Source: Escherichia coli (GTDB lineage: Bacteria; Pseudomonadota; Gammaproteobacteria; Enterobacterales; Enterobacteriaceae). From it: 64,000 bases of DNA. Numbering within the stretch: position 1 is the stretch's first letter; each line of letters begins with the position of its first letter. Below the pieces are notes generated by a model. That model saw only the letters and a list, made by a program, of their open reading frames with translations, ran no database searches and was not told the DNA's origin. Position numbers and translations under genes: made by a program. Positions 4,885 through 18,547 of this stretch are shown one piece after another. The DNA lies in the NCBI RefSeq assembly GCF_029227855.1, contig NZ_CP074356.1; one strand, 5' to 3'.

Positions 4885-5921
4885 AGCGCTGCCGCGTTGT
4901 AATATTCGTCAGTGTCCGGGGTCATCAGTGCCTGCTCCAGACGCTGCTGTTGTTCGTTATCCCCTGCCAGCACGGCAGTTTGCTGCGGATTTAGCCCCAG
5001 TTTGCGGAACAGTTGCAGGTCTTTATCTTCTTCCGGATTCGGCGTGGTTAGCAGTTTGCAACCGTAGAAAATCGAGTTAGCCCCGGCCATAAAGCACATC
5101 GCCTGAGTCTGTTCATTCATCTGCTCGCGTCCGGCAGAAAGGCGCACGTATGAGGTCGGCATCATGATCCGCGCTACGGCAATGGTGCGAATAAAATCAA
5201 AGGCATCGACATCATCGTTATCCGCCAGCGGTGTGCCTTTCACCTTCACCAGCATGTTGATTGGCACGCTTTCCGGCGGCGTCGGCAGGTTTGCCAGTTG
5301 CAGTAATAATCCGGCGCGATCTTTCACCGTTTCGCCTAAGCCCACAATGCCACCTGAGCAGACTTTGATCCCGGCATCGCGCACTTTTTCCAGCGTATCA
5401 AGGCGTTCCTGATAAGTGCGTGTGGTGATGATATTGCCGTAAAACTCCGGCGAGGTGTCGAGGTTGTGGTTGTAGTAATCCAGCCCGGCGTTCGCAAGGC
5501 GCTGCGCCTGAGATTCACTCAACGTACCCAGCGTCATACACGCCTCCAGCCCCATCGCTTTTACTCCCTGCACCATTTGTTCCAGGTAGGGCATATCGCG
5601 TTCGTGGGGATTCTTCCACGCCGCGCCCATGCAGAAGCGCGTCGATCCTGCCGCTTTCGCTTTGCGCGCCGACTCCAGCACCTGTTCAACTTCCATCAAC
5701 CGCTCGGCTTCCAGCCCGGTTTTGTAGCGCGAGCTTTGCGGGCAGTATTTGCAATCTTCCGGACAAGCTCCGGTCTTAATTGACAGCAAAGTGCTGACCT
5801 GCACCTGACGTGGATCGAAATGCTGACGATGCACCTGCTGCGCTTCAAACAGCAGATCCAGCAACGGTTTTTCAAATAATTCTGTGACTTGCGACAATGT
5901 CCAGCGTGGGCGGTGAGCCAT
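4881..5921 (-). CDS. bioB: Biotin synthase (BioB), radical SAM
   Basis: 346 aa [67 protein letters not shown]... with the CxxxCxxC radical-SAM motif; matches BioB. Confidence 0.96.
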
Positions 5922-6007: not shown

Positions 6008-7297
6008 ATGACAACGGACGATCTTGCCTTTGACCAACGCCATATCTGGCACCCATACACATCCATGACCTCCCCGCTACCGGTTTATCCGGTGGCGAGC
6101 GCCGAAGGTTGCGAGCTAATTTTGTCTGACGGCAGACGCCTGGTTGACGGTATGTCGTCCTGGTGGGCGGCGATCCACGGCTACAATCACCCGCAGCTTA
6201 ATGCGGCGATGAAGTCGCAAATTGATGCCATGTCGCATGTGATGTTTGGTGGTATCACTCATGCGCCAGCCATTGAGCTGTGCCGCAAACTGGTGGCGAT
6301 GACGCCGCAACCGCTGGAATGCGTTTTTCTCGCGGACTCCGGTTCCGTAGCGGTGGAAGTGGCGATGAAAATGGCGTTGCAGTACTGGCAGGCCAAAGGC
6401 GAAGCGCGCCAGCGTTTTCTGACCTTCCGCAATGGTTATCATGGCGATACCTTTGGCGCGATGTCTGTGTGCGATCCGGACAACTCGATGCACAGCCTGT
6501 GGAAAGGCTATCTGCCAGAAAACTTGTTTGCTCCCGCCCCGCAAAGCCGCATGGATGGTGAATGGGATGAACGCGATATGGTGGGCTTTGCCCGCCTGAT
6601 GGCGGCACATCGTCATGAAATCGCCGCCGTGATCATTGAACCGATTGTCCAGGGCGCAGGCGGGATGCGCATCTACCATCCGGAATGGTTAAAACGAATC
6701 CGCAAAATGTGCGATCGCGAAGGTATCTTGCTGATTGCTGACGAGATCGCCACCGGATTTGGTCGTACCGGCAAACTGTTTGCCTGTGAACATGCAGATA
6801 TCGCGCCGGACATTTTGTGCCTCGGTAAAGCCTTAACCGGCGGTACAATGACCCTTTCCGCCACACTCACCACGCGCGAGGTTGCGGAAACCATCAGCAA
6901 CGGCGAAGCCGGTTGCTTTATGCATGGGCCAACTTTTATGGGCAATCCGCTGGCCTGCGCAGCAGCAAACGCCAGCCTGGCGATTCTCGAATCTGGCGAC
7001 TGGCAGCATCAGGTGGCGGCTATTGAAGGGCAGCTACGCGAGCAACTTGCCCCCGCCTGTGACGCCGAAATGGTTGCCGATGTGCGCGTACTGGGGGCAA
7101 TCGGCGTGGTCGAAACCACTCGTCCGGTGAATATGGCGGCGCTGCAAAAATTCTTTGTCGAACAGGGGGTATGGATCCGGCCTTTTGGCAAACTGATTTA
7201 CCTGATGCCGCCCTATATTATTCTCCCGCAACAGTTGCAGCGTCTGACCGCAGCGGTTAATCGTGCGGTGCAGGATGAAACATTTTTTTGCCAATAA
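6008..7297 (+). CDS. bioA: Adenosylmethionine-8-amino-7-oxononanoate aminotransferase (BioA)
   Basis: ORF-track frame 5897..7297 contains [34 protein letters not shown]... from the ATG at 6008; the upstream 37 codons overlap the operator and bioB and are treated as a spurious extension. Confidence 0.95.
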
Positions 7298-7355
7298 CGG
7301 GAAGTCAGCGTGAGGGTTTCTGGCTACACTTTCTGCAAACTAGAAAGGAGGGTTC

Positions 7356-7832
7356 ATGAAACTCATCAGTAATGATCTGCGCGATGGCGATAAGCTGCCG
7401 CATCGTCATGTCTTTAACGGCATGGGTTACGATGGCGATAATATTTCACCGCATCTGGCGTGGGATGATGTTCCTGTGGGAACGAAAAGTTTTGTTGTCA
7501 CCTGCTACGACCCGGATGCGCCAACTGGCTCCGGCTGGTGGCACTGGGTAGTTGTTAATTTACCCGCGGATACCCGCGTATTACCGCAAGGGTTTGGCTC
7601 TGGTCTGGTAGCAATGCCAGACGGCGTTTTGCAGACGCGTACCGACTTTGGTAAAACCGGGTACGATGGTGCAGCGCCGCCGAAAGGCGAAACCCATCGC
7701 TACATTTTTACCGTTCACGCGCTGGATGTAGAACGTATTGATGTCGATGAAGGTGCCAGCGGCGCGATGGTCGGGTTTAACGTCCATTTCCATTCTCTGG
7801 CAAGCGCCTCGATTACTGCGATGTTTAGTTAA
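7356..7832 (+). CDS. ybhB: PEBP/YbhB-family protein (kinase-inhibitor homologue)
   Basis: 158 aa ORF MKLISNDLRDGDKLPHRHVFNGMGYDGDNISPHLAWDD... matches YbhB. Confidence 0.92.
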   Translation: MKLISNDLRDGDKLPHRHVFNGMGYDGDNISPHLAWDDVPVGTKSFVVTCYDPDAPTGSGWWHWVVVNLPADTRVLPQGFGSGLVAMPDGVLQTRTDFGKTGYDGAAPPKGETHRYIFTVHALDVERIDVDEGASGAMVGFNVHFHSLASASITAMFS

Positions 7833-7983
7833 TCACTCTGCCAGATGGCGCTATGCCATCTGGTATCACTTAAAGGTATTAAAAACAACTTTTTGTCTTT
7901 TTACCTTCCCGTTTCGCTCAAGTTAGTATAAAAAAGCAGGCTTCAACGGATTCATTTTTCTATTTCATAGCCCGGAGCAACCT

Positions 7984-9267
7984 GTGAACACATTTTCAGT
8001 TTCCCGTCTGGCGCTGGCATTGGCTTTTGGCGTGACGCTGACCGCCTGTAGCTCAACACCGCCCGATCAACGTCCTTCTGATCAAACCGCGCCTGGTACC
8101 TCTTCTCGCCCGATTCTGTCGGCAAAAGAAGCGCAGAATTTCGATGCTCAACACTATTTTGCATCCCTGACACTAGGTGCGGCAGCGTGGAATCCTTCCC
8201 CGATTACCCTGCCTGCGCAACCTGACTTTGTTGTCGGCCCGGCGGGTACTCAAGGTGTAACGCATACCACGATTCAGGCGGCGGTAGATGCGGCAATTAT
8301 CAAGCGCACCAACAAGCGCCAGTATATTGCCGTGATGCCTGGTGAGTATCAGGGAACGGTGTATGTCCCTGCCGCTCCGGGTGGAATTACTCTGTACGGT
8401 ACAGGTGAAAAACCGATTGATGTGAAGATTGGGCTTTCCCTTGATGGTGGCATGAGCCCTGCCGACTGGCGTCACGACGTCAACCCGCGCGGCAAATATA
8501 TGCCAGGTAAACCGGCGTGGTATATGTACGATAGCTGCCAGAGCAAACGCAGCGACAGTATCGGCGTTCTCTGCTCTGCGGTCTTCTGGTCACAAAACAA
8601 TGGCCTGCAACTGCAAAACCTGACCATCGAAAACACGCTGGGCGATAGCGTAGATGCGGGTAACCATCCGGCGGTGGCACTGCGTACTGATGGTGACCAG
8701 GTACAGATTAACAACGTTAACATTCTCGGTCGTCAGAACACCTTCTTTGTCACCAACAGCGGTGTGCAGAACCGTCTGGAAACGAATCGTCAGCCGCGTA
8801 CTCTGGTGACCAACAGTTACATTGAAGGGGATGTGGATATCGTTTCTGGTCGCGGCGCAGTGGTGTTCGATAATACCGAATTCCGCGTGGTGAACTCACG
8901 TACTCAGCAAGAAGCGTATGTGTTTGCACCGGCTACGCTGTCTAACATCTATTACGGTTTCCTCGCCGTAAACAGCCGTTTCAATGCTTCCGGTGATGGC
9001 GTGGCGCAACTGGGTCGCTCGCTGGATGTTGATGCCAATACCAACGGTCAGGTGGTGATCCGTGATAGCGCCATCAACGAAGGTTTTAACACGGCTAAAC
9101 CGTGGGCCGATGCGGTGATTTCCAATCGTCCGTTTGCGGGTAATACTGGCAACGTTGATGATAACGACGAAGTACAGCGTAATCTGAATGACACTAACTA
9201 CAACCGCATGTGGGAATACAATAACCGCGGCGTGGGTAGCAAAGTGGTTGCAGAGGCGAAGAAGTAA
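7984..9267 (+). CDS. ybhC: Outer-membrane lipoprotein YbhC (pectinesterase-like fold)
   Basis: 427 aa ORF with lipoprotein signal peptide ...LALAFGVTLTAC-SSTPPDQ; GTG start; matches YbhC. Confidence 0.9.
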   Translation: MNTFSVSRLALALAFGVTLTACSSTPPDQRPSDQTAPGTSSRPILSAKEAQNFDAQHYFASLTLGAAAWNPSPITLPAQPDFVVGPAGTQGVTHTTIQAAVDAAIIKRTNKRQYIAVMPGEYQGTVYVPAAPGGITLYGTGEKPIDVKIGLSLDGGMSPADWRHDVNPRGKYMPGKPAWYMYDSCQSKRSDSIGVLCSAVFWSQNNGLQLQNLTIENTLGDSVDAGNHPAVALRTDGDQVQINNVNILGRQNTFFVTNSGVQNRLETNRQPRTLVTNSYIEGDVDIVSGRGAVVFDNTEFRVVNSRTQQEAYVFAPATLSNIYYGFLAVNSRFNASGDGVAQLGRSLDVDANTNGQVVIRDSAINEGFNTAKPWADAVISNRPFAGNTGNVDDNDEVQRNLNDTNYNRMWEYNNRGVGSKVVAEAKK

Positions 9268-9273
9268 AAAAGA

Positions 9274-9338
9274 AAACCCGATAGTCTGAACCATCGGGTT
9301 AATGAAACAGGGCGCTATATTTCATAGCGCCTTTTTTT
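9274..9338. terminator. Pair of convergent intrinsic terminators between ybhC and ybhJ
   Basis: Hairpin aacccgat-N11-atcgggtt preceded by an A-run (terminator read on the minus strand) and hairpin ggcgctat-N5-atagcgcc followed by ttttttt (read on the plus strand). Confidence 0.7.
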
Positions 9339-11598
9339 ACATCTGACGGTTTTTATTGAAATTAATCAAACTACCCGCCTTGATAATCTCGCGCTCTTCA
9401 GCAGTCAGACTTTCCATATAGAGCGTAATCTCTGTTACCGGCGCATCTTCATGGATCACATAACCTTTAAACGTCGTACCCGGATTATCCAGCGCCGCTT
9501 TAATGCCAGGGATGTAAATGTAATCCCCCACTTCAAACGTTGGTGCTTCCGCCATTTGCAGCGGTAACATCCCCCAGTTGATGACGTTAGAACGGTAGCG
9601 TTTAGTCGCGTATTCCTCGGCAATATTCGCCAGACCGCCAATCACACGCTGGCAGCTCGCCGCCTGCTCACGCGCAGAACCATCGCCTGGTTTCACCGCA
9701 TAGACCATGCTGCCAATTTCAGTTTGCAGCGGATCAATATGCTCCTGACCAGCAATCTGCTTAATGCGCGCAAACACCTCTGTCAGCTCGCTGACATTCC
9801 CCGCCAGACGCTGATTTTCCAGCTCGGCAGTCGCTTTACTTCTGCCAACATAACCTGGATCGCGGCGTGACAGGGTAAACTCCGCCAGACCAATCGGATT
9901 TGAACGATAAGAAGATGTTTCACCGGAAGGAATCAGTTCGTCGGTGGTGGTGACTTCGTCGAGGATCTTCGAGCACACTTTGAGGACGATATTGTCAGTC
10001 AGCGCACCCAATTCCGGCCAGTCTTTAATGTTCGGTCCGTAAATCAGCGGTTGCTGGGTCGCCCCTTTCACAAAGCCCTGATAAACACGGTTTTTATACG
10101 GCGTTACATCGAAGGCGTACTCCGGCACGTTGTCCCAGCAATCGAGTTCGCTGGCAGAAGTTAAATAGCCACCGTTTGCCGCAGTCGCAGCGATAGAACG
10201 AGCGTCCATCAACGCCACCGCTGACATCTGCCCATTAGCTGGCTTAGAGCCTTCGCGGTTCGGGAAGTTACGCGTAGTGTGGCGAATACTTAAACCGTTG
10301 TTGATTGGCGTATCGCCCGCGCCAAAGCATGGGCCGCAGAACGCGGTTCTGATGATTGCGCCTGCGCCAATCAAATCTGCTACCACACCTTTTTTGGCGA
10401 GATCCATAAACACCGGCTGTGATGACGGGTAAACCGCCAGCGAGAAGGTGTCATTGCCACAGGATTGACCGCGCAGTGCATTCGCCGCCGCGATGACGTT
10501 TTCGTAGTTACCGCCAGAACAGCCCGCGATAATCCCCTGCTGCACTTTCAGGCGACCATTTTCCACTTTATCCAGCAGCGAGAGTTTGGCTTTACCGTGC
10601 GCCACGCGTTCGGACTCAATTTCAATCTCACGCAGAATGTCGGTCAGGTTCTGGTTCAGTGTGTCGATTTCATACACGTTGCTCGGGTGGAACGGCAGCG
10701 CAATCATTGGTTTGATAGCGCTTAAATCAACGCTGATGCAGCCATCGTAGTACGCCATCGGTTGAGGGTTAAGCTGGCAGTAATCCTGGCCGCGACCGTG
10801 CAGCGCCAGCCAGTTATGGACTTCTTCATCGGTTTGCCAGACAGAACTTAAACAGGTCGTTTCAGTGGTCATAACGTCAACGCTGTTACGGAAATCGGTA
10901 GAGAGCGCAGCAACACCGGGACCTACGAATTCCATCACTTTGTTTTTGACGTAGCCGTTTTTGAACACCGCGCCGATAATCGCCAGCGCCACATCCTGCG
11001 GACCCACATACGGAGCAGGTTTTCCGGTCAGATGCACCGCAACCACGTCCGGATAGTCGATATCCCATGTGTCATTAAGCAGTTGTTTTACCAGCTCGCC
11101 GCCGCCCTCACCGACTGCCATTGTCCCTAATGCACCGTAACGGGTGTGGCTGTCTGACCCGAGGATCATTTTGCCGCCGCCTGCCATCATTTCACGCATA
11201 TATTGATGGATAACCGCAATATGCGGAGGCACAAAAATACCGCCATAACGCTGCGCTGCCGATAAGCCAAAAATATGGTCATCACCGTTAATGGTGCCGC
11301 CGACGGCGCAGAGTGAGTTATGGCAGTTGGTCAGCACATACGGCAGCGGGAAACGTTCCATACCCGACGCTTTAGCGGTCTGTACAATACCAACAAAGGT
11401 AATATCGTGAGAGGCTAATGAATCAAACTTAATTTTAAGTTTATCCATATTTCCGGACGTATTATGAGAAGAGAGAATAGACCAGGCAATAGTGCCTTTT
11501 TTTGCTTCTTCTTTTTTAATTTCGCCGGTGAAATGTTCTTCGGCAATTATTTCGTTATTACTGGCGAGAAACACGCCTTTTTCAGATAACTTGATCAT
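9337..11598 (-). CDS. ybhJ: Aconitase-family hydratase YbhJ
   Basis: Long minus ORF (761 aa in track) with aconitase-family sequence; start moved to the ATG giving [10 protein letters not shown]..., which has a GGAG ribosome-binding site 6 nt upstream; the track start is an upstream GTG. Confidence 0.88.
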
Positions 11599-11652
11599 CA
11601 AATGCTCCAGATATCTGCGCACCGAGAAGTGCGCAGAAAGATAATAAATGGA

Positions 11653-11779
11653 TATACTCTAAATAATTCGAGTTGCAGGAAGGCGACAATCGAGTGAATC
11701 CCCAGGAGCTTACATAAGTAAGTGACTGGGGTGAGCGAACGCAGACGCAGCACATGCAACTTGAAGTATGACGAGTATA
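11653..11779. repeat. ERIC (IRU) enterobacterial repetitive intergenic consensus element, 127 bp
   Basis: Contains the two classic ERIC core sequences gtgaatccccaggagcttacat and aagtaagtgactggggtgagcg with flanking inverted ends (agttgcagg ... tgcaactt); sits between the ybhI stop and the ybhJ start. Confidence 0.9.
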
Positions 11780-11780
11780 T

Positions 11781-13214
11781 TTACAGCATGTTCCAGCCGA
11801 TCAGCATATTCCACCACCACACGCCAAGGGTGATATGCACCAGGAAGGTTAATATCGTCAGTACCGCACCGACCAACCACCAGGATTTAATATCGTTATA
11901 ACCCACGCCAAAGATGACCGGACCTGCCGCGCCGCCATAGTGAGTAACCATGCCGCCATAGGAGTTGGAGAACAACAGTGCCAGCGCGGTTAACATTAAC
12001 GGTGCGCCGGAGACGTTCGCCAGCATGGCAAATACCGGTAACATGGCAACGATATAGGCACTACCGGAAGCGAAGAAATAACGCACGATAATGCTGAGGA
12101 AAATAATAACGAAGAAAGCAACGTTACCGTGACCATCAAATGCCAGGTTATTTTTAAAGACTTCAGCTAACCATTCGAAGAATTTAACTTTCGATAATAA
12201 GGAGCTTAAGCCGATAATACCGCCGTACCAGATTAAGGTATTCCAGCCGCCTTTATTTTTAACCACGTCTTCCCAGGTAACGATACCCAGCAGCAGCATA
12301 GTCGCCATAACAACGATTGCCACGGTGGATTCATCAACCCCCAGTGACTTACTGAAAATCCAGCCCAGCAGCGCCAGCACGAAGACACCGAGCAGCATTT
12401 TTTCGCGGATTTTCATCGGTCCCAGTTCGGCAAGGCCCGCTTTGGCGATGGTTTTGTTATCCACCTTCTTAATTTCTGGCGGATACATGGTGTAAATCAC
12501 CAGCGGGGTGACCAGCAGCATAATGATACCCGGCAATCCGGCTGCCAGCGCCCATCCACCCCAGCTAATTTGCAGGTGCAGAATGTCGTTGATCATTTTC
12601 AGCGCCAGAATGTTCCCCGCCATTGCGGTAAAGAACATATAGCTGGTGGTTTTGGTGACCATGTAAATGGACATCATCAGGTAATGTCCGACACGACGCG
12701 GACTTTTTTCCGGTTCTGACCCCAAAGCCACCGCCACGCTGTTGATGATCGGTAACACAATGCCGCCCGCACGCGCGGTGTTAGACGGTGTTGCCGGAGC
12801 CAGTACCAGATCGAGGAATACCGTAACGTAACCCAGACCCAGCGTGGTGTTACCGATTTTACCAATCAGCAGATAGGCAATACGTTTACCTAAGCCGGTG
12901 GTCACAAATGCGGCGCTTAAGGTAAACGCGGAGAACACCAGCCAGGTGGTACCTGAAGAGTAACCGCTTAATACGGCGGTGGTCTTAAACGCACCGTCGG
13001 ATAAGTTACCGACCACCACCATGGAGGCAGCAACGGCAATTAACAGTACGACAGGTTCCGGGAAAGGCTTGATAACCAGCCCCACAATGGCCGCCAGGTA
13101 AATACCAAAAAGCACCCACGCCAGTTCGCTTAATCCTGCCGGAGCTGGCATAAAGCCAATAATACATGGGATCGCTAATATCAGAATTAGCTTCCATAAC
13201 GATTTTTTATTCAT
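11781..13214 (-). CDS. ybhI: DASS-family anion transporter YbhI (putative di/tricarboxylate carrier)
   Basis: 477 aa hydrophobic ORF MNKKSLWKLILILAIPCIIGFMPAPAGL... matching YbhI. Confidence 0.92.
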   Translation of the reverse strand: MNKKSLWKLILILAIPCIIGFMPAPAGLSELAWVLFGIYLAAIVGLVIKPFPEPVVLLIAVAASMVVVGNLSDGAFKTTAVLSGYSSGTTWLVFSAFTLSAAFVTTGLGKRIAYLLIGKIGNTTLGLGYVTVFLDLVLAPATPSNTARAGGIVLPIINSVAVALGSEPEKSPRRVGHYLMMSIYMVTKTTSYMFFTAMAGNILALKMINDILHLQISWGGWALAAGLPGIIMLLVTPLVIYTMYPPEIKKVDNKTIAKAGLAELGPMKIREKMLLGVFVLALLGWIFSKSLGVDESTVAIVVMATMLLLGIVTWEDVVKNKGGWNTLIWYGGIIGLSSLLSKVKFFEWLAEVFKNNLAFDGHGNVAFFVIIFLSIIVRYFFASGSAYIVAMLPVFAMLANVSGAPLMLTALALLFSNSYGGMVTHYGGAAGPVIFGVGYNDIKSWWLVGAVLTILTFLVHITLGVWWWNMLIGWNML

Positions 13215-13289
13215 TTAAAATCCTGTTCTTTCTGTATGACTCATACAGAAGTCCTTTATTGATTGTCCTTATCCTGACAACGAATTTTT

Positions 13290-14342
13290 TCAGGGAAGAA
13301 AAACTTCACCGGAAAATATTTTTCTGGTTGTCCGAATAACAGATGCGCGTAACGTCGTGGCATCCTGACCTTCATTACTTAAATGAACGTCGAGCGCACC
13401 ACTGGGGTGTTCAATATTGATATTGCCGTATCCTATAGAAGAGACGATTTGTCGGGTGACGGTGCCTTCCAATGCACAACTACTGGAAATGGCAATAGCA
13501 CCGGTTATCGCCAGCGCGCGATGGCAAGAATGCGGCATAAAATAACGCACATTAATTGCTCCGCCTTTCTGCGCTGGAGAAATAAGCACAGGTTTAGGGA
13601 TAACCATATTACTGACATCGCCTAAGCCCATTGCTTTACCCGCTTGTAGACGGATAGATTCAATGCGAGCTAATAATGCTTTGTCGGCATCCAGTTCCGT
13701 CGGTAATTCATAGCCTGTTTTTCCCAGATATTCAGCAGGAATAATGACAACTGGCATCGCCATATCGATACAGGTCACCGGGACATCGTCAAAATAATCA
13801 ATCTGATTATCCGTCGGGAAGACTTTTCCGGTTTTGGTTCCGGCGGCATTCAGGAAAGTGAGCGCAACCGGTGCGGCAGTACCCGGTACGCCGTCAATTC
13901 TGGCGCTACCCTCGTACTCGACAACACCATTTGGCGTTTGCACATCAGCTTCGATGAACGTACCCGTATTGACGTTGCGGATACGTACGCGGGTAACTGG
14001 CGAAGTCGCTGCAATCAAACCATTTTCAATGGCGAATGCCCCAACGCCAGACAGCATATTGCCGCAGTTAGGCGTGGTATCGACACGTTGCTCATGGACG
14101 ATAACTTGAGCAAACAGATAATCGACATCAGCACGCGGATCGCTGGAACGGCTAATAATGGCGACTTTACTGGTCAGCGGATTACCGCCGCCAATACCGT
14201 CAATTTCCAGATCGTTACCGGAACCCATAATTGCCATCAATATTTTATCGCGCTGCGTTTGATCTTCGGGTAGATGTTCCGCTAACAGGAACGCGCCCCT
14301 CGAGGTTCCACCTCGCATCATCACGCAGGGTATTTTTTTCAT
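13290..14342 (-). CDS. ybhH: PrpF/AcnD-accessory-family isomerase YbhH
   Basis: 350 aa ORF MKKIPCVMMRGGTSRGAFLLAEHLPEDQTQRDKILMAIMGSGNDLEIDGIGGGNPLTSKVAIISRS... typical of the PrpF family. Confidence 0.9.
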   Translation of the reverse strand: MKKIPCVMMRGGTSRGAFLLAEHLPEDQTQRDKILMAIMGSGNDLEIDGIGGGNPLTSKVAIISRSSDPRADVDYLFAQVIVHEQRVDTTPNCGNMLSGVGAFAIENGLIAATSPVTRVRIRNVNTGTFIEADVQTPNGVVEYEGSARIDGVPGTAAPVALTFLNAAGTKTGKVFPTDNQIDYFDDVPVTCIDMAMPVVIIPAEYLGKTGYELPTELDADKALLARIESIRLQAGKAMGLGDVSNMVIPKPVLISPAQKGGAINVRYFMPHSCHRALAITGAIAISSSCALEGTVTRQIVSSIGYGNINIEHPSGALDVHLSNEGQDATTLRASVIRTTRKIFSGEVFLP

Positions 14343-14525
14343 AATAATGCCCTCAATTTAAAAACATAACTTATTGCGATATGGTTACATTAAGGGCAAA
14401 GCATCTCTAATGACTTTAGCTCAACGATTAATAACATTTTTTCATTAATTTAAGTTAGCTAAATGCAGTTAGAATTTTTAACGGCCAGTCACCCAAAATC
14501 GACGCTTCCATTTTCCGGAGTAATA

Positions 14526-15479
14526 ATGAAGCATGAATTATCAAGTATGAAGGCATTTGTCATACTGGCAGAGTCCAGTTCATTTAACAATGCCGCTAAA
14601 TTACTCAATATTACGCAACCTGCATTAACGCGAAGAATAAAAAAGATGGAGGAAGATTTACATATCCAACTATTTGAGCGTACAACTCGCAAGGTTACGT
14701 TAACAAAAGCAGGAAAAAGATTGCTCCCGGAGGCGCGGGAATTAATAAAGAAATTCGATGAAACGCTTTTTAATATTCGTGATATGAATGCTTATCATCG
14801 TGGTATGGTGACATTAGCGTGTATTCCGACCGCAGTATTTTATTTTTTACCGCTGGCAATCGGTAAATTTAATGAGCTTTATCCCAATATTAAAGTGCGG
14901 ATTCTGGAACAAGGTACGAATAATTGCATGGAATCGGTGCTGTGTAACGAATCAGACTTTGGCATAAACATGAACAACGTCACAAATTCATCCATCGATT
15001 TTACCCCACTGGTCAACGAGCCGTTCGTGCTGGCCTGTCGGCGTGACCATCCATTGGCCAAAAAGCAGCTTGTAGAATGGCAGGAGTTAGTGGGTTACAA
15101 AATGATTGGCGTACGCTCCTCCAGCGGCAACCGACTGTTGATAGAACAACAGCTAGCCGACAAGCCCTGGAAGCTGGACTGGTTTTACGAAGTGCGTCAT
15201 CTTTCGACGTCATTAGGACTGGTGGAGGCAGGACTGGGGATTTCGGCGCTTCCTGGTCTGGCAATGCCCCATGCGCCCTATTCTTCGATTATTGGTATCC
15301 CACTGGTGGAACCGGTTATACGTCGGACATTGGGGATTATTCGCCGCAAAGATGCCGTGCTTTCTCCGGCAGCTGAACGCTTTTTTGCCTTGCTGATTAA
15401 TTTGTGGACTGACGATAAAGACAATTTGTGGACCAATATCGTCGAACGCCAGAGACATGCGTTACAGGAGATAGGTTAA
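14526..15479 (+). CDS. ybhD: LysR-family transcriptional regulator YbhD
   Basis: Frame contains MKHELSSMKAFVILAESSSFNNAAKLLNITQPALTRRIKKMEEDL (helix-turn-helix) from the ATG at 14526; divergent from ybhH; the ORF-track upstream extension is rejected. Confidence 0.88.
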   Translation: MKHELSSMKAFVILAESSSFNNAAKLLNITQPALTRRIKKMEEDLHIQLFERTTRKVTLTKAGKRLLPEARELIKKFDETLFNIRDMNAYHRGMVTLACIPTAVFYFLPLAIGKFNELYPNIKVRILEQGTNNCMESVLCNESDFGINMNNVTNSSIDFTPLVNEPFVLACRRDHPLAKKQLVEWQELVGYKMIGVRSSSGNRLLIEQQLADKPWKLDWFYEVRHLSTSLGLVEAGLGISALPGLAMPHAPYSSIIGIPLVEPVIRRTLGIIRRKDAVLSPAAERFFALLINLWTDDKDNLWTNIVERQRHALQEIG

Positions 15480-15519
15480 TACACCGGCGCAGAAGAGACT
15501 GCGCCGGGTAAATCAGCGG

Positions 15520-16551
<1,032 letters not shown>

Positions 16552-16669
16552 CTAAAATTAGTCGCTTTTGGCGGTGAATGCTGAATTAAAACGCAGAATT
16601 TTGTCCGATAGTGGTATCGGTGTACCATTCGCGCAGAAGAAAATTCTTAACCTTAATCTGGAATACGCC

Positions 16670-17488
16670 ATGACCACACGCGTGATTGCTCTCGACTTAG
16701 ACGGCACCTTATTGACCCCGAAAAAGACCTTGCTTCCATCATCGATAGAAGCCCTGGCCCGCGCTCGCGAAGCAGGCTATCAATTAATCATCGTCACAGG
16801 TCGCCATCACGTCGCTATTCATCCTTTTTATCAGGCGCTGGCGCTGGATACACCTGCTATTTGCTGTAATGGCACCTATTTGTATGATTATCATGCAAAA
16901 ACAGTGCTGGAAGCGGACCCAATGCCCGTTAATAAAGCCCTGCAACTCATTGAGATGCTGAATGAACACCACATTCACGGTCTGATGTATGTCGATGATG
17001 CAATGGTCTATGAGCACCCGACCGGGCATGTCATTCGCACGTCTAACTGGGCGCAAACCCTGCCGCCGGAACAGCGTCCGACTTTCACACAAGTCGCTTC
17101 TCTGGCTGAAACGGCGCAACAAGTTAACGCCGTATGGAAGTTCGCCCTGACGCACGATGACCTGCCGCAATTGCAGCATTTTGGTAAGCATGTCGAACAT
17201 GAACTGGGACTTGAGTGTGAATGGTCCTGGCACGATCAGGTTGATATTGCACGCGGCGGCAACAGCAAAGGTAAACGTTTGACGAAATGGGTTGAGGCAC
17301 AAGGTTGGTCGATGGAAAACGTCGTGGCATTCGGCGATAACTTTAATGATATCAGTATGCTGGAAGCCGCTGGTACAGGCGTGGCGATGGGCAACGCCGA
17401 TGACGCGGTAAAAGCGCGCGCCAACATTGTGATTGGTGATAACACTACCGACAGCATTGCCCAGTTCATTTATAGCCACCTGATTTAA
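16670..17488 (+). CDS. ybhA: HAD-family phosphatase YbhA (pyridoxal phosphate phosphatase)
   Basis: From the ATG at 16670: MTTRVIALDLDGTLLTPKK... with the HAD DxDGT motif; the ORF-track upstream extension is rejected. Confidence 0.9.
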   Translation: MTTRVIALDLDGTLLTPKKTLLPSSIEALARAREAGYQLIIVTGRHHVAIHPFYQALALDTPAICCNGTYLYDYHAKTVLEADPMPVNKALQLIEMLNEHHIHGLMYVDDAMVYEHPTGHVIRTSNWAQTLPPEQRPTFTQVASLAETAQQVNAVWKFALTHDDLPQLQHFGKHVEHELGLECEWSWHDQVDIARGGNSKGKRLTKWVEAQGWSMENVVAFGDNFNDISMLEAAGTGVAMGNADDAVKARANIVIGDNTTDSIAQFIYSHLI

Positions 17489-18547
17489 TCAGGCGGTTAT
17501 CGACACACTTTTAATTTGCGCGTACAGCCACAGGCCTGGTTTGATCGCCAGTTCATCCCTGGCCCACGGGCTGATACGCGCCCACAGCGTTTTACCGCCG
17601 ACTTCCAGCTCCACTTCCACCTGGCCGTTGTCGTCATAACTATTAACAACTTTTGCCCGCAATACGTTACGAATGCTGGTTTGCTGCGGCGGTTGTAAAA
17701 CCAGCGAGACATCGGAAGCCTGAATGCGGATGCGTAGTGCAGCTTGCAGCGGTTCGTCCAGCTTATTGACCCACAAATGCTGATCGCCCAGCGCCAGCGC
17801 GGTCATCGCGTAATGCGGATGATGCTCAAGCACCGTCACTTTCAGAATGCTACTTTGTTGCTCTTTCGGCAGCCACGGATTCATCACGCTACTGCCCCAC
17901 ACTTCCTCCAGCGCGCCAAAGGCTTTCACCTGACCGTTTTCCAGTACCATCACTCTGTCTGCCAGATGGAGGATCTCATCCAGCGAATGGCTGACATACA
18001 ACATCGGAATGTTGATTTCCCGTGTCAGCCGTTGCAGATAAGGCAACAGTTCGCGTTTACGCGGAATATCCAGTGACGCCAGCGGTTCATCCAGCAACAG
18101 CAATTCCGGTGCTGTCAGCAAAGCCCGACCAATCGCCACGCGCTGTTTTTCGCCTCCGGACAGGCTGCCTGGTAAACGGTCAAGCAACGGTTCAATGCCT
18201 AAAAGCGCCACCAGCTTATCGAACTGATCGACCATACTTTTCGACATGCCGTAGCGCAGATTGCCACGCACTTTGTAATGCGGGAACAGCCGCGCATCCT
18301 GAAAAACATAGCCAACGCGACGCTTTTCCGGCGTCAGGCAGATACCTTTTTCGGCATCATTTAGTACCCGCCCATTGAGGACAATCCGCCCTTTTTGCGG
18401 ACGCGTCAGTCCACTGATGGCGTTAATCAGCGAAGTTTTTCCGGCACCGGAGACGCCAAAGATAGCAGTGATGCCATTGGCGGGCAGCGTTTCATTAATG
18501 GTCAGGCAATGGTTGCCCAACGTCTGGGAAAAATTCAGTTCCAGCAT
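17489..18547 (-). CDS. modC: Molybdate ABC transporter ATPase ModC
   Basis: 352 aa ORF with Walker [10 protein letters not shown] and ABC signature LSGGEKQR plus a C-terminal Mop-type domain; matches ModC. Confidence 0.95.

Follow-up and report, generated by a model that had tools for sequence, protein, structure and literature searches.

The tarR/tarA-tarB system of Bacillus velezensis FZB42 serves the assimilation of trans-aconitic acid (PMC11495376). The gene of its LysR-type activator TarR shares a promoter region with the divergent operon, in which tarA for a PrpF-superfamily isomerase precedes the gene of an MFS transporter. Acidaminococcus fermentans ferments trans-aconitate via citrate and oxaloacetate to pyruvate (PMC3035267). 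The enzymes named are aconitate isomerase, aconitase, citrate lyase and oxaloacetate decarboxylase (Hartel and Buckel, 1996, as cited in PMC3035267); the genes for the isomerase and aconitase steps are identified by annotation only. On plasmid pCT281 of B. thuringiensis CT-43, tbrA-tbrB also comprises a PrpF-family aconitate isomerase gene followed by a transporter gene. It is a trans-aconitate production operon, directed to biosynthesis and to export by a DMT exporter, and it has neither regulator nor aconitase. Two further systems use PrpF-superfamily isomerases: GalD/LigU, 4-oxalomesaconate (OMA) delta-isomerases of gallate and protocatechuate 4,5-cleavage, and the 2-methylcitrate cycle, where the isomerase gene prpF adjoins acnD for an aconitase-superfamily dehydratase.

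The Escherichia coli ybhD/ybhH-ybhI-ybhJ cluster is located in a window of 64,000 nt on contig NZ_CP074356.1. ORF positions, gene content, orientation and family calls of the sequence-only reading all match those found here. The features are:

9275..9300, minus strand: terminator-like hairpin with T-run, immediately 3' of the ybhJ stop codon
9309-9333, plus strand: hairpin that would serve the convergent ybhC
9337-11598, minus strand: ybhJ, 753 aa from the RefSeq start ATG at 11598; RefSeq name hydratase
11694..11737, no strand assigned: ERIC element core within the 182-bp ybhI-ybhJ spacer
11781-13214, minus strand: ybhI, 477 aa; RefSeq name anion permease
13290-14342, minus strand: ybhH, 350 aa; RefSeq name 4-oxalomesaconate tautomerase
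14343..14525, no strand assigned: divergent control region between ybhH and ybhD
14374-14392 and 14407-14417: two further conserved blocks in the control region
14428-14448: candidate LTTR-type box TTAAT-N11-ATTAA in the control region
14526-15479, plus strand: ybhD, 317 aa from the RefSeq start; RefSeq name LysR regulator

In the RefSeq annotation, ybhC and pgl border the four-gene block. The ybhJ frame stays open upstream to a GTG at 11622 on the minus strand (9337-11622, 761 aa). A longer ybhD ORF (14463-15479, plus strand, 338 aa) exists as well; the 317 aa from the RefSeq start fit the orthologues of 308-317 aa. The cluster is real and more than a chance arrangement. Among 5426 complete E. 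coli genomes, 5315 (about 98%) hold 80% or more of the 7-kb block. The unit of a LysR gene divergent from PrpF, DASS and aconitase genes also occurs in Klebsiella aerogenes and Edwardsiella tarda, where its chromosomal surroundings differ. In Klebsiella and Edwardsiella the module moves between chromosomal sites as one unit; in K. aerogenes it lies two genes away from citAB-oadGAB-citS. All four genes are under strong purifying selection, with dN/dS values versus Citrobacter and Edwardsiella of 0.03-0.11 that are rough, as dS is saturated. Citrobacter and Edwardsiella hoshinae have a shorter spacer between ybhI and ybhJ, of 68-73 bp. In E. coli it contains what we take to be an enterobacterial repetitive intergenic consensus (ERIC), recognised by the ERIC1R/ERIC2 primer sequences. 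This core is an insertion and no functional part of the pathway; it could affect co-transcription of ybhJ or mRNA stability.

YbhD is a LysR-family protein. According to the literature it keeps ybhH repressed as long as no inducer is present: a ChIP-exo site was located in the ybhH/ybhD control region, and deletion of ybhD derepressed ybhH (PMC9068703). Furthermore, ybhH is among the CRP SELEX targets (PMC3105977). The sole reported phenotype of the ybhD deletion is a growth effect in glycerol M9 that appears only with added L-malate, an observation that hints away from tricarboxylates (PMC9068703).

In ybhHI, gene order and divergent LysR gene are as in tarR/tarA-tarB. The E. coli module differs from it in three respects: the transporter YbhI belongs to the DASS instead of the MFS family, the dedicated aconitase YbhJ is added, and without induction YbhD acts as a repressor, in contrast to the activator TarR. 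YbhH belongs to the PrpF superfamily, with Lys59 and Cys93 conserved, and the structure of the K-12 protein has been solved (6otv). It is related to the proven aconitate isomerases TbrA, the next outgroup to the YbhH and GalD clades together (41% identity), and TarA, among whose homologues a Shigella YbhH-type copy is listed with 40.5% identity (PMC11495376). As a point against an aconitate isomerase role, PrpF-family homologues with 35-41% identity to TarA displayed between 0.4% and 115% of its activity in vitro; the only enterobacterial one assayed, from Providencia and not established as a YbhH orthologue, reached 0.7%. The YbhH clade is sister to true GalD and linked only to LysR regulators and transporters. 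Its closest non-enteric members (55-58% identity) in Rhizobium, Aureimonas and Phyllobacterium are encoded in units of a LysR gene divergent from isomerase and ABC-transporter genes, and galB and galC are absent from these units. We propose that YbhH is a candidate isomerase interconverting trans- and cis-aconitate. YbhI matches the DASS model TIGR00785 with 554 bits (cutoff 199), shares 33% identity with the citrate/succinate antiporter CitT across the whole protein and is proposed as a candidate tricarboxylate importer, possibly working by exchange.

YbhJ is an aconitase-superfamily protein with an equivalog model of its own (NF008503). Fe-S cysteines, catalytic serine and carboxylate-binding arginines are intact: of the pig mitochondrial aconitase residues it keeps Cys358/421/424, Ser642, His101, His147, Asp165, His167, Glu262, Arg447, Arg452 and Arg644, and the loop arginine equivalent to Arg580 is R565 within 'SSYRSN'. 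Across 83 family members, the aconitase-type residues are 95-100% conserved. We infer that YbhJ is a [4Fe-4S]-type hydratase and probably a genuine aconitase that converts cis-aconitate to citrate or isocitrate and back. In Lachnospiraceae, Clostridium sp. AT4, Enterocloster bolteae and Megasphaera, proteins with 67-73% full-length identity to E. coli YbhJ are encoded in tight operons (gaps of 2-30 bp) with citrate synthase and isocitrate dehydrogenase (IDH), which argues that citrate and isocitrate themselves are what this family acts on. Other relatives adjoin PrpF-type isomerases, transporters and citrate lyase genes. Examples are Oribacterium L054, where a LysR gene is divergent from PrpF-MatC/CitMHS transporter-YbhJ-citD-citE-citF-citX-citG...citC, loci L084 and L087 (LysR divergent from YbhJ-PrpF-transporter), L025 (LysR-YbhJ-citDEF) and L065 (IDH-citDEF-YbhJ with RraA-like oxaloacetate decarboxylases). 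Judged by such neighbourhoods, catabolic versions of the cluster exist. A. fermentans has a YbhJ homologue with 67.5% identity, and its reaction order is the one proposed for ybhHIJ. In related Firmicutes of rumen and gut, genes for PrpF, YbhJ and a MatC/CitMHS carrier are clustered with citDEF. Unlike in the A. fermentans route, the citrate lyase and CitT genes of E. coli lie about 150 kb from the module, and an oxaloacetate decarboxylase pump is lacking.

The sequence-only reading had inferred import and isomerisation or hydration of an aconitate-like tricarboxylate from the AcnD-PrpF pairing. The neighbouring aconitase-type and isomerase genes are shared with that pairing, yet prpB and prpC are not near ybhHIJ, which has a transporter and a dedicated regulator instead. 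Membership does not hold: YbhJ as an AcnD-type protein was rejected (TIGR02333, 66 bits versus a cutoff of 1420), and so was YbhH as a PrpF equivalog (TIGR02334, 187 bits versus 440.6). The proposed tricarboxylate function itself agrees with the independent evidence from homologue neighbourhoods and is supported by this comparison, not by the AcnD/PrpF analogy. The better analogues are tarR/tarAB (PMC11495376) and the A. fermentans fermentation (PMC3035267). The context of the YbhH clade, its identity to TarA and TbrA and the features of YbhJ together make the module look like a tarRAB trans-aconitate variant that has gained a transporter of the DASS family and an aconitase of its own. The proximity to citAB-oadGAB-citS in K. 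aerogenes, the derepression of ybhH upon ybhD deletion and its place among the CRP SELEX targets lend further support.

We therefore propose, at about an even chance, that ybhD/ybhHIJ is a LysR-controlled, normally repressed module for the catabolism of an aconitate-type tricarboxylate from outside the cell, with trans-aconitate as the most likely substrate. The acid would enter via the CitT-like YbhI, perhaps against a dicarboxylate. YbhH would convert trans- to cis-aconitate by an allylic proton shift using Lys59/Cys93, and YbhJ, as a working [4Fe-4S] aconitase whose family is typical of gut anaerobes, would hydrate the latter to citrate or isocitrate. This product could enter the TCA cycle or be cleaved by citrate lyase (citCDEFXG). 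YbhD would bind the TTAAT-N11-ATTAA box, and the operon would be released or activated when the acid is present. As the sequence-only reading had stated, a substrate is not established; our literature search found no published assignment for ybhD/ybhHIJ. Growth of E. coli on trans-aconitate is not known, which speaks against this acid. A further point against is that the residual aconitase activity of an acnAB mutant was unchanged upon ybhJ inactivation (Blank et al., 2002, as cited in PMC4054840), which could be due to repression of the module by YbhD.

A different plant or microbial tricarboxylate, e.g. a homoaconitate-, hydroxycitrate- or methylaconitate-like one, might be imported, isomerised and hydrated in the same manner. 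We consider this unlikely, although several features point to it. Cys replaces Asp100 of the Asp-His pair in the entire YbhJ family, which also argues against aconitate, and the family has two insertions of about 40 aa each. Blautia (L020) and a metagenome contig (L009) encode a canonical PRK07229 aconitase right beside a YbhJ-type protein, so that both types may differ in specificity, and some Firmicute loci carry additional lactonase-like and RraA-like genes. By contrast, the operons with citrate synthase and IDH and the adjoining citrate lyase genes point to citrate and isocitrate, and no gene indicates any of the candidate compounds.

Less probable are C5 branched dicarboxylates, with YbhH as a methylitaconate/itaconate-type isomerase and YbhJ as a hydratase of citraconate or mesaconate that forms citramalate or methylmalate. 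YbhH matches 3-methylitaconate isomerase (3g7k, E = 3e-67), and in archaea citraconate is hydrated by aconitase-family enzymes. A Firmicute citE representative scores below the citrate lyase beta-subunit cutoff (379 versus 443 bits), so some of the citDEF sets could encode citramalate lyases. However, citF, citD, citX and citC pass their citrate lyase cutoffs, citrate synthase and IDH as neighbours fit citrate and not citramalate, and YbhJ retains the Arg580-equivalent arginine that binds the third carboxylate.

It is improbable that YbhH is, as its RefSeq name says, an OMA tautomerase/delta-isomerase and that the module processes tricarboxylates from the ring cleavage of gallate or protocatechuate, YbhJ taking the place of the GalB/LigJ hydratase. 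YbhH passes the NCBI equivalog NF033377 for OMA tautomerase (515 bits, cutoff 440), which counts against aconitate, and matches the GalD structures 6p3h, 6p3j and 6p3k at 1e-92. The Lys/Cys catalytic pair is shared with GalD/LigU, and OMA, too, is a tricarboxylate resembling aconitate. But the GalD clade (44-49% identity) is separate, and YbhH is unlike GalD by gene context: all GalD-clade loci examined adjoin galB and the CHA aldolase gene, whereas ybhH and its nearest relatives are never found beside galB, galC or a ring-cleavage dioxygenase. A CHA aldolase was not found in the window region, and YbhJ relatives occur in strict anaerobes, which lack ring cleavage that depends on oxygen.

More improbable still is a decaying relic in which YbhJ, an aconitase paralogue without catalytic activity, would play a part in regulation or stress. 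YbhJ has been called catalytically inactive, and a ybhJ deletion mutant is H2O2-sensitive and low in NADPH (PMC4054840). A rare ybhJ allele has lost two Fe-S cysteines by an in-frame deletion. Nevertheless, the source cited for inactivity tested only a knockout in uninduced cells, catalytic and cluster residues are intact family-wide, dN/dS of ybhJ is 0.03, and 5375 of the 5380 genomes carrying ybhJ retain the deleted segment. C4-dicarboxylate (L-malate) utilisation, as proposed from the ybhD deletion phenotype and consistent with 35% identity of YbhI to a plant 2-oxoglutarate/malate translocator (PMC9068703), is very improbable, since malate metabolism has no role for a PrpF-type isomerase or an aconitase-type hydratase and the phenotype could be an indirect effect of a derepressed DASS exchanger swapping malate.

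The arrangement of the genes and their conservation are established, as are the intact catalytic residues, the literature finding that YbhD represses ybhH, and the homologue neighbourhoods; from these we infer the substrates and activities of all components. The comparison with other bacteria suggests that E. coli possesses a normally repressed module for import, isomerisation and hydration of a tricarboxylate. In the best explanation, trans-aconitate would most likely derive from plant material in the gut.

The ybh module, proposed here to be a normally repressed unit for an aconitate-type tricarboxylate such as trans-aconitate, occupies the local order bioCFB/bioA-ybhB-ybhC, ybhJ-ybhI-ybhH, ybhD, pgl-ybhA-modCBA:

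9300-9275, hairpin followed by a T-run, 3' of ybhJ
9337-11598, minus strand, ybhJ (ORF call; frame open upstream to a GTG at 11622)
11781-13214, minus strand, ybhI (ORF call)
13290-14342, minus strand, ybhH (ORF call)
14526-15479, plus strand, ybhD (ORF call; frame open from 14463)

The window, chromosomal E. coli DNA, agrees at 100% identity with strain JNEC-KY178. ORF calling found the four genes at the same coordinates as the sequence-only reading, whose family assignments of the products also held. YbhI, read as a DASS-type transporter, scores 553.9 bits with TIGR00785 (cutoff 198.6). Over its entire 477 aa, it shares 33% identity with CitT, the citrate/succinate antiporter of this strain (E = 5e-85). 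YbhH had been called a PrpF-family protein: its orthologues carry PF04303, and K59 and C93, invariant in 17 aligned family members, are kept. YbhD had been described as a LysR regulator divergent from the module. Its orthologues have HTH_1 and LysR_substrate domains, and it is encoded opposite to ybhHIJ; its shorter form starting at 14526 is favoured by orthologues of 308-317 aa. ybhI lies 3' of ybhH after a 75-bp gap, in an operon arrangement of isomerase and transporter genes; no terminator with a T-tail was found in this gap. The 182-bp ybhI-ybhJ spacer (11599-11780) is filled by a repeat (core 11694-11737) that we take to be ERIC, going by the ERIC1R and ERIC2 primer sequences. In E. albertii this spacer is as long as in E. 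coli, 182 bp, but Citrobacter sp. FP75 and Edwardsiella hoshinae have only 68-73 bp, which makes the ERIC an Escherichia-lineage insertion inside the operon. No Rfam family matched in window 7000-18000.

Membership of the YbhJ-YbhH pair in the AcnD/PrpF system, on which the sequence-only reading had drawn, had to be abandoned. YbhJ reaches 66.4 bits with the AcnD model TIGR02333 (cutoff 1419.85) and YbhH 186.7 bits with the PrpF equivalog TIGR02334 (cutoff 440.55). Neither prpB nor prpC is located near the ybh cluster, and prpF proper comes after acnD. By contrast, YbhH passes the 4-oxalomesaconate tautomerase (GalD) model NF033377 with 515.3 bits (curated cutoff 440). Relatives of YbhH were searched by tblastn against plasmids and their annotated neighbourhoods inspected. 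The proteins of Rhizobium pRL12, Aureimonas and Phyllobacterium (55-58% identical to YbhH) are encoded in units of an isomerase gene with ABC-transporter genes and a divergent LysR gene, and nothing else. Those of Sodalis, Pantoea, Nitratireductor and Agrobacterium (44-49%) are flanked by galB and a 4-carboxy-4-hydroxy-2-oxoadipate aldolase gene, sometimes with tannase or dioxygenase genes, and P. putida GalD belongs to this group by sequence. Among the loci with neighbourhoods examined, galB/galC is present in none of six from the YbhH clade vs. all four from the GalD clade. In a neighbour-joining tree (no bootstrap), enteric and alphaproteobacterial YbhH proteins form one clade that is sister to GalD and not inside it. 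The next branch out is a PrpF-domain protein of B. thuringiensis, 41% identical to YbhH. The gene for this protein and the DMT transporter gene beside it match a segment of the CT-43 plasmid NC_017203.1 at 100% identity. In this strain, the aconitate isomerase TbrA and the transporter TbrB were defined (PMC11495376, PMC12492653), and we infer that the PrpF-domain gene is tbrA.

Judged by context and clade, YbhH would not be GalD although it passes the GalD model, and it is probably mis-named as 4-oxalomesaconate tautomerase. Where an isomerase gene is accompanied by nothing but transporter and regulator genes, the enzyme has to convert the imported compound to a central metabolite: conversion of trans- to cis-aconitate fits, 4-oxalomesaconate does not. 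YbhH is ~40.5% identical to TarA, the aconitate isomerase of the trans-aconitate system tarR/tarA-tarB of Bacillus velezensis FZB42. A 2024 census of TarA homologues included proteins of Shigella, E. fergusonii, Citrobacter, Klebsiella and Edwardsiella at 38-40.5%; ybhH was not discussed. Homologues at this distance display 0.4%-115% of TarA activity in vitro, so homology alone does not settle the function of YbhH. K59 and C93 would correspond to the catalytic pair K73 and C107 of S. oneidensis PrpF; a catalytic Lys and Cys are also reported in PMC5690661. Since both residues are invariant everywhere, they do not discriminate between isomerase clades. Nine positions separate YbhH, GalD and the aconitate-isomerase set, and they point both ways. 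With these data, trans-aconitate as the physiological substrate is about evenly balanced. Another tricarboxylate is improbable, and C5 branched dicarboxylates are distinctly less probable again. 4-Oxalomesaconate or gallate products have the model score on their side and the absence of galB/galC from the YbhH-clade loci against them, and are a poor candidate. The structure of K-12 YbhH has been solved (6otv); a literature search found no paper behind PDB 6otv/6p3h. The window YbhH deviates from the crystallised protein by T215A, S301P, I303V and F348Y (window residue first).

In HMM searches, the only model that YbhJ matches is its own equivalog, NF008503 ('hydratase'); it stays far below the cutoffs of all named aconitase, IPM isomerase, homoaconitase and AcnD models. 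Alignment to pig and bovine mitochondrial aconitase (mAcn), with conservation assessed over 83 family members, suggests an active enzyme. The Fe-S cysteines C360, C421 and C424 correspond to mAcn C358, C421 and C424 (motifs AGCSGG and FCGPCFG) and are kept in 81-82 of the 83 members. The catalytic serine is present (S641, mAcn Ser642), and H93, H131, D149, H151 and E246 match mAcn His101, His147, Asp165, His167 and Glu262; the matched catalytic and cluster residues are 95-100% conserved. R443, R448 and R643 align directly to mAcn Arg447, Arg452 and Arg644. R565 ('SSYRSN') aligns to the loop arginine ('SSMRSN') of a canonical PRK07229 aconitase from Blautia, and we take it to be the equivalent of mAcn Arg580, in WLKFRGH of the mitochondrial sequence. 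Arg580 of mAcn binds the third carboxylate. All four carboxylate-binding arginines are at least 98% conserved. The position of mAcn Asp100 is occupied by Cys92 throughout the family (C-H-N vs. D-H-N in the canonical PRK07229 aconitase), and the family has two insertions of ~40 residues each. YbhJ has the appearance of a functional aconitase, and its sequence lends no support to the literature label 'catalytically inactive aconitase paralogue'. A non-catalytic YbhJ could draw on a ybhJ knockout with unchanged residual aconitase activity (Blank et al., 2002, as cited in PMC4054840), which silence of the operon would explain; given the conserved residues above, we consider it very improbable.

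Two allelic variations of ybhJ were seen. An in-frame deletion of 357 bp (residues 418-536, window 9991-10347) occurs in some E. coli; it results in a 634-aa product (protein cluster P0037 and ~20 sibling clusters) and removes Cys421, Cys424, Arg443 and Arg448. This allele is rare: among complete genomes, 5375 contain the deleted segment vs. 5380 the flanking one. In the window, the same stretch 9991-10347 is locally divergent, with 34 records at least 99% identical vs. 1951 over the adjacent 553 bp (10348-10900). This suggests a recombined allele segment.

A scan with one genome per species yielded at least 598 confirmed YbhJ relatives. The best 80 of them belong mostly to gut and rumen anaerobes (Lachnospiraceae, Enterocloster, Blautia, Butyrivibrio, Collinsella, Megasphaera, Acidaminococcus, Synergistales, Ellagibacter), and the family is mainly not enterobacterial. 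ORFs were called in all loci and clustered, and recurrent neighbours annotated. At least nine loci, spread over several families, have the YbhJ gene in tight operons with citrate synthase and isocitrate dehydrogenase genes (gaps of 2-30 bp) or facing a divergent pair of the two. E. coli YbhJ is 67-73% identical to the YbhJ-type proteins of these loci, whose composition suggests that the YbhJ family handles citrate and isocitrate. A second pattern is controlled by LysR. In Oribacterium sp. KHPX15, a LysR gene diverges from PrpF-MatC/CitMHS carrier-YbhJ-citD-citE-citF-citX-citG...citC. Loci L084 and L087 contain LysR divergent from YbhJ-PrpF-carrier, L025 LysR-YbhJ-citDEF, and L065 IDH-citDEF-YbhJ with genes for RraA-like oxaloacetate decarboxylase/aldolase. 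By their gene content, such clusters appear to reproduce, gene for gene, the route trans-aconitate -> cis-aconitate -> citrate -> acetate + oxaloacetate -> pyruvate. This route is biochemically established in Acidaminococcus fermentans (Hartel and Buckel, 1996, as summarised in PMC3035267), whose YbhJ homologue is 67.5% identical. In a third pattern, the metagenome contig L009 carries LysR-Iso_dh-PrpF-YbhJ-like beside two further aconitase genes. L009 and L020 encode a canonical aconitase in addition to a YbhJ-type protein, so redundancy between the two types may be incomplete. The most divergent YbhJ-like representatives (P0148, P0154) are followed by Macro-domain genes only. Collinsella homologues (~68% identical; L035-L064 and others) have a conserved neighbourhood of their own (clusters of 630, 597, 875, 228, 236 and 138 aa), in which PrpF, CS, IDH and citDEF are absent.

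The ybhH/ybhD spacer contains the box TTAAT-N11-ATTAA (14428-14448) of the LTTR T-N11-A type. Its first half-site is invariant in six enteric species (E. coli, E. albertii, Citrobacter, two Edwardsiella species and Klebsiella), and further conserved blocks are located at 14374-14392 and 14407-14417. A study with ChIP-exo and RNA-seq identified a YbhD site, a strong increase of ybhH in the ybhD deletion mutant and a Nac link (PMC9068703). ybhH is among the CRP SELEX targets (PMC3105977); inspection of the intergenic region by eye revealed no convincing CRP half-site pair. ybhJ mRNA increases 18-fold when E. coli feeds on Chlamydomonas (PMC10972114). Together, these data describe ybhHIJ as a carbon-catabolic operon silent in standard media. 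That the module serves malate, as a growth phenotype of the ybhD mutant dependent on L-malate might imply (PMC9068703), is the least probable alternative. The best NCBIfam match of YbhD, L-proline-binding PsrA of Serratia (257 bits, cutoff 540), was dropped as a guide: it is an unrelated pleiotropic regulator, its paper mentions no ybh-like neighbours, and we treat it as a distant paralogue of YbhD, an ordinary LysR protein.

In the mechanism proposed, YbhI would import an aconitate-type tricarboxylate, probably by exchange like CitT, YbhH would convert it to cis-aconitate, and YbhJ would hydrate the latter to citrate or isocitrate, to be taken over by citrate lyase, whose genes are ~150 kb from the module, or by the TCA cycle. 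Trans-aconitate is long known to inhibit aconitase competitively (PMC11495376, introduction), and a dedicated aconitase would make sense if YbhJ tolerated it. The complete scheme is put forward tentatively and is more doubtful than the substrate alone: YbhJ would be a third, fully functional aconitase of E. coli, from a family found elsewhere mostly in strict anaerobes of the gut, and would work with an aconitate isomerase and a CitT-like exchanger in a cryptic route that ferments trans-aconitate and feeds into citrate lyase.

The module is well maintained. At least 80% of the 7-kb block is found in 5315 of 5426 complete E. coli genomes, and ybhJ-internal probes match 5375-5380. dN/dS of all four genes is 0.03-0.11 against Citrobacter and Edwardsiella hoshinae, an approximate range as dS is saturated. 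In Klebsiella aerogenes, the module is located between rihC and the citrate-fermentation genes citB-citA-oadBAG-citS (citAB-oadGAB-citS; L002/L003 13016-20286), two genes from the latter. In Edwardsiella tarda, it has yet another chromosomal context. These differing contexts and the conservation mean that the four genes travel as a module. Base composition (ybhJ ~52-54% GC, ybhI/H/D 41-50%) gives no clear signal of horizontal transfer. K. aerogenes encodes an additional 420-aa transporter between ybhI and ybhJ (L002/L003 7683-8945); a Firmicute MatC-type carrier was rejected, as the protein is not homologous to it but DASS-like. In E. tarda (L004/L005 7483-8915), ybhI is broken into overlapping ORFs of 230 aa (93% identical to one half of YbhI) and 260 aa (88% to the other) and is probably a frameshifted pseudogene beside intact ybhH, ybhJ and ybhD. 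In strain NMBU-W10C18 (NZ_CP044403.1), the module is interrupted by IS1B; the match falls into two parts, and the annotation gives ybhI no gene name. CP088669.1, deposited as a 730-kb E. coli plasmid and carrying ybhH at 99% identity, is most likely a mis-labelled chromosomal fragment. The 6-phosphogluconolactonase gene pgl (15520-16515) adjoins ybhD, and two Firmicute YbhJ loci (L065 329-1417, L020 14534-15694) encode a weakly Pgl-like beta-propeller lactonase (80-84 bits) beside a MatC-type carrier. This is probably a coincidence because the module of Klebsiella and Edwardsiella is not accompanied by pgl; in the two Firmicutes, a tricarboxylate-lactone substrate is conceivable.

Annotations have included the ybh cluster for a long time, and the 2024 census already contained the general idea implicitly. 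New are the comparative evidence that YbhJ-family proteins may be bona fide aconitases and the predicted separation of YbhH from GalD. Like tarRAB, the module would combine a LysR-controlled aconitate isomerase with a transporter and would add the aconitase step of Acidaminococcus. It differs from tarRAB by its DASS carrier and its dedicated aconitase of an anaerobe-type family.

ybhD, ybhH, ybhI and ybhJ are among the best-conserved E. coli y-genes still without function. If the proposal is true, the E. coli metabolic map would gain a third aconitase, an isomerase and a transporter, and both the RefSeq name of YbhH and the literature label of YbhJ would be corrected. The long-known trans-aconitate fermentation of Acidaminococcus and the rumen would obtain candidate genes for its aconitase and isomerase steps. 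Trans-aconitate is tied to grass tetany via its reduction to tricarballylate. Enterobacterial gut ecology would be connected to this major plant acid: enteric bacteria could use an organic acid that is among the most abundant in grasses and would, at the same time, dispose of a compound that strongly inhibits their housekeeping aconitases.
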